DNA from: a virus
Taxonomy: Duplodnaviria; Heunggongvirae; Uroviricota; Caudoviricetes
Reading direction: 5' to 3' (one strand)
DNA length: 42,002 nucleotides
IMG/VR virus record: IMGVR_UViG_2563366918_000005
The translations under genes and the position numbers were made by a program. This document shows positions 33,001 to 36,433 of this stretch, piece after piece. How positions within the stretch are numbered: the stretch's first letter is position 1; each line of letters opens with the position of its first letter. The notes below the pieces were generated by a model. It saw nothing but the letters and a program-made list of their open reading frames with translations, was not told where the DNA came from and made no database searches.

Positions 33001-33061
33001 CTTTACCCTCGCTTATCCACATAACTTATTGATTACATTGATAACTAAAAAGATCGTCGAT

Positions 33062-33406
33062 TCAGAACTCTTCGATGTTCCAGCCACCACCTGCTTTCTT
33101 TGGTTTAACCGTTACCCCGATGATTCGGAACGGATACTGATCTGCGGCGACTTTGGTTTTCACCCTGGCGTCGTCGGTCCAGAAACCTTTCACTTCGTGC
33201 AGTTCCATCTCGCCGGTGGCGAGCATCACAGCAAAATCGGGCGTATAGAACGTGTTGTCAGCTAACCGCAGCTTGATACCCTCAAATCGATACCAGACGA
33301 TTTCTCCTGCACGTTTACGCAGCTCAAGGTGCTGGCAATACGCAGATTCTGTTTTGTTCATCTGTCCTGTTTTGAGTCGACCAAGAGCCTGTATCTGTTT
33401 TCTCAT
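33062..33406 (-). CDS. Putative PD-(D/E)xK-type nuclease
   Basis: 114 aa; motif …YTPDFAVM…EMELHEVKG fits a D…ExK signature; operator pair immediately upstream. Confidence 0.4.
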   Translation of the reverse strand: MRKQIQALGRLKTGQMNKTESAYCQHLELRKRAGEIVWYRFEGIKLRLADNTFYTPDFAVMLATGEMELHEVKGFWTDDARVKTKVAADQYPFRIIGVTVKPKKAGGGWNIEEF

Positions 33407-33523: not shown

Positions 33524-34324
33524 TTACTTGATAAATCCTGCCGCCTTTCCTCGCCTGTATTCCTCCATCAGCCACTGCGCCGGTGTTATTCCCCCAAGGG
33601 TGGCGGCGTTAGGCATGCACCCGAAACTTCGCCCTGGTGGATGGTAAACGTCTCTCCCTGTGTCCGGAGGCGTACTCATGGGTTCTGGCTTTGCCTGTAT
33701 GCTGATCACCGGATCGGGTATCTGCTGTCCGGAAGCCACCTTTTTCGCCCAATCATCGAGCAGCCTGCGCGCGTGTTTCTCAACCTCTATCTCGCTAAGC
33801 TGGCGCTGATACATTGCACGGCGGGTATCACATACGACCCAGTACATAACCGGATGCCGCCACGGGAATCTTTCGGGACCACCAGGATATAAACTTTTTT
33901 CCTTGCTGTACCGGTGAAACTCCGTCATCACATCGTCAATGGTGACGCCAAGAACCATCTTGCTGTCTTTGCACCACTTGATGAATTGCCCTGGCGACGG
34001 CCAGAACGGAGAATCACTGGCGCGGGCGTGGCGCATACCAGCAGAAACCTGTTCACGGGTTCGGATCCCCCCTTCGGCAAACGCAGCAATCCACTGCTGT
34101 TTTGCAGCAACTTCCTGCTCTGGCGTCTTCAGGTTGGTTACCACTGCCGCCGGAAACAGTTGTTTCAACTGTTTGAAAAGGGCATCAACAAGCCTCTCTG
34201 CTGACATGTTCACTACGTTGTCATTGTTGACGTACTGATGCTCATAACCTGACATGCGAGAAAGGGCTTCTCCGTCACGGTTTTGTATTGCGGTAAAAAC
34301 GTTGTTCACAAGAAATCCTCCCAT
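33524..34324 (-). CDS. Replication protein P-like (helicase loader)
   Basis: Block …KQQWIAAFAEGGIRTREQVSAGMRHARASDSPFWPSPGQFIKWC… parallels lambda P (…RRQWVLAFRENGITTMEQVNAGMRVARRQNRPFLPSPGQFVAWC…) as remembered; start may be at an internal Met (34255). Confidence 0.7.
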   Translation of the reverse strand: MGGFLVNNVFTAIQNRDGEALSRMSGYEHQYVNNDNVVNMSAERLVDALFKQLKQLFPAAVVTNLKTPEQEVAAKQQWIAAFAEGGIRTREQVSAGMRHARASDSPFWPSPGQFIKWCKDSKMVLGVTIDDVMTEFHRYSKEKSLYPGGPERFPWRHPVMYWVVCDTRRAMYQRQLSEIEVEKHARRLLDDWAKKVASGQQIPDPVISIQAKPEPMSTPPDTGRDVYHPPGRSFGCMPNAATLGGITPAQWLMEEYRRGKAAGFIK

Positions 34325-35097
34325 GCTTCAGGGCTGTTCCAGTGCGGAACGTTGTTATCAGGTAATGTTGATTGCTTCTGTCTGCTAATCTGCAGCCGCC
34401 TTGCCAGCTTCTGCTCCCACTGCGCCTGATGGTATGCCTTACCCTCAGCCATCCAGTAAATTCTGAACTCTGCAAGTTCCTGTGCCGTTGGCAGACTGTC
34501 CAGGTAGATCCCCTGCAATGAGCTTTTCCGAAGAAAGTCATCTGATGGTTGCCATTGTTCATGCATGACAAATTTGCCTAATTGCCCTGGCCCACCAGGA
34601 GGAACAAAGTTATTCATCACGGCGTTGTTTGCGCCGGGGTCATGAGGCACAGAATCCCCGCTTTTTGTCCTGCTCTCCCTCTCTTGGTTAAATGACTGGT
34701 TATATGACTGGTTCTGGATCCCGTTTTTGGGATCATTCAACATCCCGTTTTTGGGTATATTCCCGTTTTCGGTAACATTACCGTTTTCGGGTTCATTACC
34801 CCCTTCCCGGTTGCCTTTAATGTTCCCGTTTTTGGTTATATTAAGAGAGAAAACCCGCACTCTTTTCGTCGCTCCCTTTCTCTCTCCGGTATCTGAAATA
34901 AGCCCCATTTTCATGAGCGATATAAGCCCGGCCTGCACGGTTTTTTTATTCAGGCAAGTGTCTTTAACGAGGCGTTCTATGCTGGGGTAGCAGAGGTTAT
35001 ATTCATCGGCTCTGTCAGCCATCGAGAGCAGTATGAGCTTTAATGACGAGCTACCTGGATCTGTCTCCCAGGCCCAATCTGTTGCATGTCTGCTCAT
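34306..35097 (-). CDS. Replication initiator (lambda O-like) with origin iterons inside the gene
   Basis: N-terminal wHTH-like domain; central repetitive linker (ENGN repeats) encoded by iterons; directly upstream of P-like gene. Confidence 0.6.
   Translation of the reverse strand: MSRHATDWAWETDPGSSSLKLILLSMADRADEYNLCYPSIERLVKDTCLNKKTVQAGLISLMKMGLISDTGERKGATKRVRVFSLNITKNGNIKGNREGGNEPENGNVTENGNIPKNGMLNDPKNGIQNQSYNQSFNQERESRTKSGDSVPHDPGANNAVMNNFVPPGGPGQLGKFVMHEQWQPSDDFLRKSSLQGIYLDSLPTAQELAEFRIYWMAEGKAYHQAQWEQKLARRLQISRQKQSTLPDNNVPHWNSPEAWEDFL
34692..34839. repeat. Origin-like iteron array (five or more ~17-bp repeats TCCCGTTTT(T/C)GGG, 18-bp period) plus 2x ATGACTGGTT
   Basis: Repeats start at 34718, 34742, 34760, 34778, 34823; flanking AT-rich segment; inside O-like gene as for ori-lambda. 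Confidence 0.6.
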
Positions 35098-35112: not shown

Positions 35113-35376
35113 TCAGCTTGAATGTTGTGGGGAGGAATTAATCATGATCTGCTTAATCTCTGCCCTGATACGACGGTTTGATTCCATGGTGCACTCAACA
35201 CAGTGTCCGTTGTAAACCCAGCGTTCACTGTCATGTCCGTGCTTACATGTTTTTCCGGTGTAGTAGCGTTTAAGTCCGCGCTTTGCGGCATCAATACGTG
35301 TAATGATTTCCATGGTAAGCCCTGTTATTAGTATTGGGATTACGGTCATTTTGTGCTGACACAAAAAAAATATCAA
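35113..35376 (-). CDS. Small Cys/His zinc-ribbon-like protein (hypothetical)
   Basis: …YYTGKTCKHGHDSERWVYNGHCVEC…; start uncertain (35376 or internal Met at 35313). Confidence 0.4.
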   Translation of the reverse strand: MIFFLCQHKMTVIPILITGLTMEIITRIDAAKRGLKRYYTGKTCKHGHDSERWVYNGHCVECTMESNRRIRAEIKQIMINSSPQHSS

Positions 35377-35409: not shown

Positions 35410-35463
35410 AATAGATATGAAAAGACCGCCGGGTGGCGGTCTACAGAGGGTTGTGGCTGGATA

Positions 35464-35694
35464 TCATGAGTAGAAGAAGTATGCCAGTTCTGCTTTTGAG
35501 CGCAGCCATTGTCTTGTTTTACAGGCTTTAAAAAGCCCATTCATCAATACTTTACCTGGCATTTTGCGCTTACCTGTTAAGTGAGTCTGGATATAGTGAC
35601 TCGTCGTTCCGGCTTCCTGTGCGAAGGCTTCACGCTCATCCGGAGTAAGTGCAAGCCAGTGCTTTTTGAAATCGAAATGTCCGTTATCGCTCAT
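35464..35694 (-). CDS. Cro-like small DNA-binding regulator (first gene of leftward early operon)
   Basis: 76 aa; divergent from repressor gene across the three-operator region. Confidence 0.5.
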   Translation of the reverse strand: MSDNGHFDFKKHWLALTPDEREAFAQEAGTTSHYIQTHLTGKRKMPGKVLMNGLFKACKTRQWLRSKAELAYFFYS

Positions 35695-35729
35695 AGCTAT
35701 TGCCTGATATTTATTTCAGATAATAAATA

Positions 35730-35746
35730 TTCACCCATAAGGTAAC
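35730..35746. promoter_or_regulatory. Operator (weak) TTCACCCATAAGGTAAC
   Basis: One mismatch in left half. Confidence 0.3.
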
Positions 35747-35760
35747 AAAAATCAAGGATA

Positions 35761-35848: not shown

Positions 35849-36433
35849 ATGAAAAGTATCCAGGACGTCCGCAGGCAAAATCTCAACGACTTGATCGACC
35901 GTGAATTCAATGGTGTTCAGACGCGGATGGCAGAAAAACTTGGAACTCAGGCAAATCTGGTAAACCGCTGGGCTCTTGGCAAGAAGGTTATCGGCGACCA
36001 GGTTGCACGAAAAATTGAAGCTGCCGCCAATAAACCCCGTAACTGGCTTGATATTGATCGCTCGCTTTCTCAGGAGGGTTTTCAGCCTGTCGGCCCGAGC
36101 GATATAGGTCAGCTGGCGGCTCACAACCTGGAACGCTGGATGAGCGAAAGCCGCGACCTTTCAACGCAGGGAAAACTACACCGCGCATCCGGCGTCGCCC
36201 AGGTGACAATCAGCCGCCTGTTAAACAATGAGGTCAGCGTTTCCATTTCCACCCTGGAGAATGTTGCATCCGCATTCGGGCGTCACGGCTATGAATTACT
36301 GATTCACCCGCACGACCCTGCGACCATCAACTATGATCGCTCGCGCTACGCATTGTTACCCGAAACCGAGAAAGCAAAGATCGAAAGTTACATTGAATTT
36401 GTCATCAACCAGAACGAAAAAAACAAACAATAA
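35849..36433 (+). CDS. Immunity repressor candidate with two HTH domains, no peptidase domain
   Basis: 194 aa; HTH-like segments (…QTRMAEKLGTQANLVNRWALGKK… and …LHRASGVAQVTISRLLNNE…); no Ala-Gly / Ser-Lys autocleavage module seen; sits between operator clusters. Confidence 0.6.
   Translation: MKSIQDVRRQNLNDLIDREFNGVQTRMAEKLGTQANLVNRWALGKKVIGDQVARKIEAAANKPRNWLDIDRSLSQEGFQPVGPSDIGQLAAHNLERWMSESRDLSTQGKLHRASGVAQVTISRLLNNEVSVSISTLENVASAFGRHGYELLIHPHDPATINYDRSRYALLPETEKAKIESYIEFVINQNEKNKQ

Follow-up and report, generated by a model that had tools for sequence, protein, structure and literature searches.

A putative iteron-based replication origin inside the initiator gene of a phiV10-like phage

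We analyzed a repeat array and the gene that contains it in a 42,002-nucleotide stretch of viral DNA (IMG/VR record IMGVR_UViG_2563366918_000005), referred to here as the window. Judged by its sequence, the window represents a phiV10-like temperate phage of the genus Uetakevirus, very likely a prophage in Escherichia coli. The array consists of five iterons and lies in the linker between the two domains of a predicted replication initiator, where it probably forms part of the vegetative replication origin of the phage. The gene and the elements within it are as follows, in the direction of reading (positions are those of the window).

34306-35097, minus strand: initiator gene (open reading frame of 263 amino acids [aa]), with the putative origin in its interdomain linker
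34837-35097, minus strand: coding region of the predicted N-terminal winged-helix domain, aa 1 to 87 (AlphaFold2 and Foldseek)
34824-34837, minus strand: iteron 1, AACCAAAAACGGGA, promoter proximal, with two mismatches to the core
34793-34823, minus strand: nonrepeat spacer of 31 bp between iterons 1 and 2, reading ACATTAAAGGCAACCGGGAAGGGGGTAATGA on the gene strand
34779-34792, minus strand: iteron 2, ACCCGAAAACGGTA
34761-34774, minus strand: iteron 3, TACCGAAAACGGGA
34743-34756, minus strand: iteron 4, ACCCAAAAACGGGA
34719-34732, minus strand: iteron 5, TCCCAAAAACGGGA, identical to the core, with the dyad arms TCCC/GGGA
34693-34714, minus strand: pair of 12-bp units in tandem, GAACCAGTCAta TAACCAGTCA, adjoining the last iteron on its 3' side
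34661-34685, minus strand: purine-rich tract after the 12-mers, AAGAGAGGGAGAGCAGGACAAAAAG, weakly AT rich
34327-34581, minus strand: coding region of the C-terminal DnaT-like domain, aa 173 to 257 (matches to solved DnaT structures)

On the gene strand, the iteron core reads TCCCAAAAACGGGA, with the dyad arms TCCC and GGGA placed around an A tract, and the copies in the window differ from this core by 0 to 3 mismatches. The pattern CCRAAAACGG occurs five times in the 42,002 bases, always on the minus strand (at 34721, 34745, 34763, 34781, and 34826), compared with a chance expectation of 0.18; five copies were reached in 0 of 100 shuffles. The iteron cores span positions 34719 to 34837, and the motif is found nowhere else in the window. 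A repeat search returned a 24-nucleotide (nt) family of five copies (34715-34738, 34739-34762, 34757-34780, 34775-34798, and 34820-34843) with start-to-start spacings of 24, 18, 18, and 45. These results confirm a preliminary description, made from the sequence, that had placed a repeat array here within the initiator open reading frame. The tandem-repeat check proposed at that time also agreed, as Tandem Repeats Finder recovered a period of 18 at 34745-34800 and a period of 12 at 34685-34713. The 18-bp periodicity then ascribed to the array holds for the middle copies, but the other spacings are 24 and 45. Likewise, the "five or more" repeats come down to five without a clear sixth: we looked for a degenerate iteron in the 45-bp gap and found no match within 3 mismatches at 34793-34823. 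This spacer is the most variable stretch among close relatives (alignment columns 93 to 105).

The array sits 263 to 381 nt from the start of the initiator gene, between the HTH_36 domain (aa 18 to 67) and the DnaT domain (aa 176 to 244). It encodes aa 88 to 127, and all five copies are read in the same frame (TKNGN, PENGN, TENGN, PKNGM, and PKNGI), so the repeats are translated as a repetitive linker, as first described. Two GATC (Dam) sites overlap the ends of iteron 5 (34717-34720 and 34731-34734), and TGATCCC recurs at the origin-proximal iterons of enterobacterial relatives and not in those of Vibrio. This pattern hints at a possible influence of Dam and SeqA.

The two domains of the initiator were assigned by profile and structure comparisons. 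Pfam HTH_36 matched aa 18 to 67 (E = 1.7e-10) and the Pfam DnaT DNA-binding domain matched aa 176 to 244 (E = 1.1e-15); the protein also matched PHROG 1032, "replication initiation protein" (E = 1.5e-102). The AlphaFold2 model of aa 1 to 87 (mean predicted local distance difference test score of 87) has the element order helix-helix-(bridge)-helix-helix-strand-wing-strand, which in this model makes the region a winged helix-turn-helix. Foldseek matched it to winged-helix DNA binders (MarR, Fur/PerR, and TFE) and to 4pql with E values of 3e-3 to 3e-2, which identify the fold class only. The label of 4pql in the Foldseek results is "N-terminal domain of DNA binding protein," and we take this entry to be the N-terminal domain of a plasmid RepA. 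The N-terminal domain is the presumed iteron-binding module. The C-terminal domain matched the solved DnaT structures 9zbt, 6aep, 4ou6, and 4ou7 (E = 6e-21 to 2e-19) and probably contacts single-stranded DNA and/or the helicase loader.

The likeness to E. coli DnaT, a replication restart protein, lies in the C-terminal 85 residues, which match the DnaT C-terminal domain (E of about 1e-20). Unlike a true DnaT, the initiator matches through this domain only, and its score against the full-length DnaT equivalog NF002770 was 85.1 bits (cutoff of 201), covering only aa 173 to 256. In databases, the whole protein is nevertheless named after its C-terminal domain ("primosomal protein I" or "DnaT-like ssDNA-binding domain-containing protein"), and the phiV10 homologue is annotated as "putative primosomal protein." The database name is misleading: the N-terminal domain, the iterons, and the P-like neighbor point to origin-specific initiation rather than to PriA-dependent restart.

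Next to lambda, the locus shows the same arrangement as ori-lambda within gene O. This likeness, already claimed in the preliminary description, extends to every respect that sequence can show, with qualifications on the protein family and the AT tract. Lambdoid origins lie in the middle of O and comprise iterons and an AT-rich tract, and Shiga toxin-encoding (Stx) phages have six iterons versus four in lambda, adding 13 residues to O (PMC7466680). The four annotated iterons of lambda are located 349 to 433 nt into O, have the sequence TCCCTCAAAACGAGGGA, and precede a tract of 80% AT. Like ori-lambda in lambda and Stx phages, the window array is made of direct repeats that have an internal dyad, G/C arms, and an A-tract center and that lie in the interdomain linker, about as far into the initiator gene as in lambda. 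Lambda also shares the two-domain initiator with an N-terminal DNA-binding domain, the P-family loader gene directly downstream, and the position of the module in an early operon beside the immunity region. As among lambda and Stx phages, relatives of the window phage differ by whole iterons that add residues to the protein. The differences from lambda are that the N-terminal domain of the initiator is HTH_36 and not Phage_rep_O/TIGR01610, that its C-terminal domain is DnaT-like, that the iteron core is 14 bp long (17 to 19 bp in lambda), and that the window lacks a strong AT-rich tract and has instead two conserved 12-bp GAACCAGTCA units, which are missing in lambda.

The term "O-like," applied to the initiator from the beginning, stands for its architecture and class of function and not for membership in the lambda O family. 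There was no match to PF04492 at an E value of ≤0.01 and none to TIGR01610 (on which lambda O itself scores 132.6 bits), and the C-terminal domain is of the DnaT type, not the lambda O type. The window protein and lambda O both match PHROGs 678 and 345 with their N-terminal parts, an indirect link that hints at a remote relationship. The locus also resembles the iteron origins of theta plasmids in its winged-helix initiator and in its tandem iterons beside short tandem 12- to 13-bp repeats. Such short tandem repeats are how unwinding elements are usually laid out. Unlike those origins, the window origin would lie inside the initiator coding sequence, its loader is phage encoded, and its initiator consists of one winged-helix domain plus a DnaT-like domain. 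A further difference is that no DnaA box lies near the array (TTWTNCACA occurs 3 times in the window versus 4.25 times expected). A distance of 1.7 kb separates the array from the nearest perfect DnaA box, TTATCCACA at 33013-33021 (plus strand), which is flanked by the DUF1064 gene and its neighbor.

We then turned to conservation of the array in more distant homologues. Approximately 30 homologues share only the N-terminal domain with the window initiator, at 35 to 87% identity and in hosts from Desulfovibrio to Acinetobacter, and nearly all of them have a repeat array at the same position in the gene, mostly with the same motif. Among phage records, tblastn identified lineages sharing the N-terminal domain only at 35 to 49% identity: PPompW prophages of E. 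coli, Vibrio anguillarum phages H20 and H2, Edwardsiella phage GF-2, Acinetobacter phage AP22, and Burkholderia phage Bcep176. A related in-gene array, roughly 270 to 450 nt into the gene, is present in every phage lineage with this domain (six lineages). Its motif varies among them (CCCAAAAACGG, CCGAAAACGGTAC, TCCCAAAATTGGGA, ACCCAAATTTGGGT, and GTCCCAAAnnnn), and the AP22 repeat, ACCCAAATTTGGGT, is a perfect DNA palindrome. Scanning one genome per species with a three-sequence alignment of the N-terminal domain yielded 27 further loci, with hosts including Superficieibacter, Marinobacterium, Vibrio, Wohlfahrtiimonas, Providencia, Proteus, Pseudoalteromonas, Desulfovibrio, Acinetobacter, Sphingobium, Zoogloeaceae, and Methylotenera. 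Searching proteins with the N-terminal domain alone yielded short or truncated sequences only, which served for a shallow alignment and were uninformative about domain combinations.

A de novo count gave the same picture. When 21 homologous genes from different species were each searched for their most repeated 10-mer, the median copy number was 5; in control flanks of equal length, the median was 3 and no flank exceeded 4. This 10-mer was mostly found at nt 260 to 480 from the gene start and was usually a variant of CCCAAAAACGG; spacings of 17 and 22 bp also occur among the homologues. Conservation in relatives had been named beforehand as a point on which the origin reading could fail, and the array turned out to be kept at the DNA level down to about 35% protein identity.

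The tblastn search also found lineages that share only the C-terminal domain (SPN1S, Tyrion, and others), and the motif was not found in SPN1S and Tyrion. Both phages belong to the same genus, Uetakevirus, and their linkers hold repeats of another kind: short GTCCGC...GCGGAC units in SPN1S (L013, 988-1308) and three copies of GGATCAGG in Tyrion (L014, 1180-1500). These may be origins of their own. The initiator of phage GF-2 (L009, 1201-2043) has the same N-terminal domain and iteron type joined to a lambda O-type C-terminal domain and is followed by a lambda P homologue. From this junction, the origin-bearing linker appears to be the joint at which N- and C-terminal domains have been exchanged as modules.

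The short repeats beside the array are conserved as well. As noted in the preliminary description, there are two of them, and they are exact copies of AACCAGTCAT (plus strand, ATGACTGGTT) at 34692-34701 and 34704-34713, the sole tandem pair of that motif class in the window. They encode QNQSYNQSF within the sequence QNQSYNQSFNQ that follows the array; phiV10 has three such 12-mer units versus two in the window. Nearly all homologues examined (L096 to L119 and L007 to L012) have short tandem GAAC-type units after the last iteron, usually as GAAYCWRTCA, mostly in two or three copies 12 to 13 bp apart. Variants include GGAACCCAAA, present twice in PPompW, and GAACAGTAG, present four times in Bcep176. 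The units are kept even where the iteron sequence, C-terminal domain, loader type, and host differ (Desulfovibrio, Sphingobium, Methylotenera, Acinetobacter, Vibrio, and enterobacteria), and in many relatives an A-rich tract comes after them. Because they are read in different frames among the homologues (QNQS, EPVI, and ESIS), they are a DNA element.

The GAAC-type units occupy the position of the unwinding region of lambda and may thus constitute a second origin element; their position suggests an unwinding or loading site. More speculatively, and with our own judgment leaning against it, they could be an undescribed origin element that replaces the AT-rich tract of lambda as the strand-opening site and that a universal host factor or a conserved portion of the initiator recognizes in single-stranded or duplex form. 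Two known signals were considered as explanations of the 12-mers, the IHF consensus WATCARNNNNTTR and the CTG priming site of DnaG. In a by-eye check of the family variants, neither was kept in GAATCTATCA or GAACCTATCA.

We favor a reading, well supported by the comparisons, in which the locus works like ori-lambda. From what the sequence comparisons offer, positions 34661 to 34837 are likely to be the vegetative replication origin of this phiV10-like phage, placed in the linker of its own initiator gene. The N-terminal winged-helix domain would bind as dimers to the five dyad-symmetric iterons (TCCC-AAAAAC-GGGA), giving rise to an O-some-like nucleoprotein complex, with the A5 tracts probably aiding DNA bending. 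The complex would destabilize the adjacent DNA, which comprises both GAACCAGTCA 12-mers and the purine-rich tract. The C-terminal DnaT-like domain would then recruit the lambda P-like loader, together with host DnaB, to the opened region.

Of the other explanations, the one that survives best, although we consider it unlikely, takes the iterons as genuine initiator sites that serve mainly for autoregulation, copy control, or exclusion of related phages, with replication starting elsewhere in the phage. Plasmid iterons, too, serve in control by handcuffing. The lack of a strong AT-rich tract beside the window array would fit such a role, as would the inhibition of related phages that cloned lambda origin fragments can cause (PMC3349717). 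However, the 42-kb window has no other copy of the motif that could act as a separate origin, and the array agrees with the lambda origin both in where it lies within the gene and in the loader that follows. In relatives, the stretch directly after the array, with its conserved 12-mers and A-rich tracts, also resembles an unwinding region.

A reading that we hold to be very improbable is that the repeats are a feature of the protein only, an Asn/Gly-rich flexible linker that arose by recent in-frame duplications. In its favor, the five window copies share one frame encoding (T/P)(K/E)NG, and changes in copy number keep the frame. Across the homologues, however, the reading frame of the motif differs from gene to gene and also among copies in one gene, and all three frames are represented (PKNG, TQKR, and PKTE), with 14 of 67 copies in the minority frames. 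The motif also persists in homologues from different bacterial orders that share 35 to 60% protein identity, even as the surrounding peptide changes. We compared codon use in motif copies read as (P/T/S)(K/E)NG with that in the rest of the same genes, and the synonymous positions proved to be frozen, a pattern that spans 25 genes from different taxa.

Asn AAC: 52 of 54 in the motif, 168 of 383 elsewhere in these genes (Fisher P = 7e-15)
Lys AAA: 31 of 31 in the motif, 347 of 543 elsewhere in these genes (Fisher P = 2e-6)
Pro CCC: 42 of 42 in the motif, 72 of 346 elsewhere in these genes

The occurrence of the motif in several frames and the frozen synonymous sites indicate, at the level of sequence comparison, that selection acts on the DNA and not on the peptide, and the frame and synonymous-site analyses largely refute a repeat maintained for the protein alone. 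In addition, the repeat sequence shifts together with the wing of the DNA-binding domain. In a qualitative comparison, CCCAAAAACGG-type repeats accompany the wing motif DTG(E/K/R)RKG in every homologue that has it. Only L116, L117, and L119 lack the wing motif DTGERKGxT (a four-residue deletion), and their recognition helix is altered as well. The repeats are of the TCGGAAAAATCCGA type in L116 (Sphingobium) and the GTGCCAAAAGTGGCAC type in L117 (Zoogloeaceae), and L119 (Methylotenera) has its own, different repeat; all three keep the arm-A-tract-arm design. Such a joint change of wing and repeat is as expected if the winged-helix domain reads the repeats.

Copy number was surveyed in 80 near-identical phiV10-like IMG/VR loci, a sample that informs on copy number and not on diversity, as the scan of viral contigs yielded no other kind of locus. 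Six iterons were the most common state (57 loci), followed by five (16 loci) and seven (4 loci); one locus each had three (in a truncated open reading frame), four, and nine. The differences always comprised whole 18- or 24-bp units and kept the frame. The window has the minority five-copy form, and most phiV10-like phages have one extra 24-bp unit, a duplicate of the unit holding iteron 4. In PAS61, iteron 3 is TCCCAAAAACGGGA, which differs from the window copy by two changes toward the consensus. The 301-bp segment with the putative origin was found in 422 of 5,426 complete E. coli genomes.

This polymorphism would also fit a slippage-prone hypervariable tract with no sequence-specific role, either a contingency locus or a recombination joint between the N- and C-terminal domains. 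The many database proteins truncated or frameshifted within the array and the domain swap point in GF-2, with its lambda O-type C-terminal domain, speak for such a tract as well. Even so, we give it slightly less credence than the protein-only explanation, as it leaves unexplained the same 11-nt motif from Desulfovibrio to Acinetobacter, tracking the wing motif. A role as a recombination joint is, moreover, compatible with origin function and does not replace it. Finally, action of the repeats in the mRNA as small dyad hairpins, e.g., slowing translation or coupling O/P expression, is the least probable explanation: each dyad can form a 4-bp hairpin and the RNA fold of 34680-34850 (minus strand) has a z of -1.98, but this weak value is equaled in 7 of 200 shuffles, all that persists in the centroid is two tiny hairpins, Rfam gave no match, and perfect DNA palindromes such as ACCCAAATTTGGGT of AP22 better fit dimer binding to duplex DNA.

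Many database versions of the initiator are truncated or frameshifted in or near the array (proteins P0005, P0009, P0025, and P0032 and locus L004 [YDC107_2]). Possible causes are decay of the prophages or errors made at the repeats during sequencing or assembly. Copies of the module that are 96 to 99% identical occur in records of large lytic-type phages: PP488543.1 (Escherichia phage BP9, 138 kb, Vequintavirus) at 134937-135728, near the end of the record, and PP350014.1 (phage PH444, 115 kb). This looks like assembly chimerism or contamination with prophage DNA and not like real gene transfer.

Several points weigh against the origin reading. There is no marked AT-rich tract beside the iterons: the maximum is 62.5% AT in 40 bp, the 87th percentile of the window, versus 80% in lambda. 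Within the gene, AT content peaks (70% in 40 bp) immediately upstream of iteron 1, which makes the site of unwinding uncertain. Homology to lambda O was not detected by BLASTP (E = 0.07 over 17 residues) or by hhalign (probability of 3.5%), and the lambda mechanism is therefore carried over by analogy. Copies within one gene are nonindependent, so that the codon statistics overstate the number of independent events. Lastly, promoter-like sites in the region were as frequent as expected by chance in the consensus scan.

The surroundings of the initiator gene comprise the following features.

35849-36433, plus strand: repressor gene with two helix-turn-helix motifs
35720-35748, minus strand: weak candidate for a pR-like promoter preceding the cro-like gene (consensus scan, 9 of 12 matches)
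35464-35694, minus strand: cro-like gene
35423-35442, minus strand: terminator-like hairpin in a tR1-like position, between the cro-like gene and the replication genes
35113-35376, minus strand: small gene
33524-34324, minus strand: lambda P-family helicase loader gene (PF06992, E = 1.7e-56; PHROG 109, "P-like helicase loader," E = 1.5e-91; phiV10 annotation)
33062-33406, minus strand: DUF1064 gene (match to PHROG 190, "Holliday junction resolvase")

At the DNA level, the initiator gene is 94 to 99% identical to those of phiV10, phiv142-3, PAS61, and EC.W1-9, and the gene order in the window agrees with the phiV10 annotation. The initiator/loader operon lies downstream of the cro-like gene and opposite the repressor gene, and transcription from the pR-like candidate would head toward the putative origin. 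At the place matching the hairpin at 35423-35442, phiV10 has an annotated rho-independent terminator. The P-type loader gene (PF06992 and PHROG 109) directly follows the initiator gene, and its longest open reading frame overlaps that gene by 19 nt (34306-34324). The true start of the loader is probably the ATG at 34309, which gives a 4-nt ATGA-type overlap with the initiator stop, as in phiV10, and suggests translational coupling. The phage region also holds a tRNA-Arg gene (anticodon TCT) at 25974-26050 (plus strand).

In the annotated records that we inspected, the region carries gene annotation only and the origin is unmarked. Full-text literature searches for the motif strings returned nothing relevant, and the phiV10 or epsilon15 genome papers may hold an earlier description; a paper on Uetakevirus (PMC9782041) has no mention of an origin, iteron, or replication protein. 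An origin inside the initiator gene is an arrangement expected from the lambda paradigm, and the module is widespread. Conceptually, it adds little beyond that paradigm unless the GAAC-type units are a new kind of unwinding or loading signal. Recognizing the origin corrects the reading of this region as a "primosomal protein I" or DnaT-like gene only, and the origin offers a defined fragment for phiV10-based vectors or reporter phages. Its repeats would explain why the gene is frequently broken or frameshifted in assemblies, and domain swaps seem to fall exactly at the origin. A winged-helix family with its iterons and a specificity change tied to a wing deletion would together form a compact natural system for the co-change of initiator and origin.

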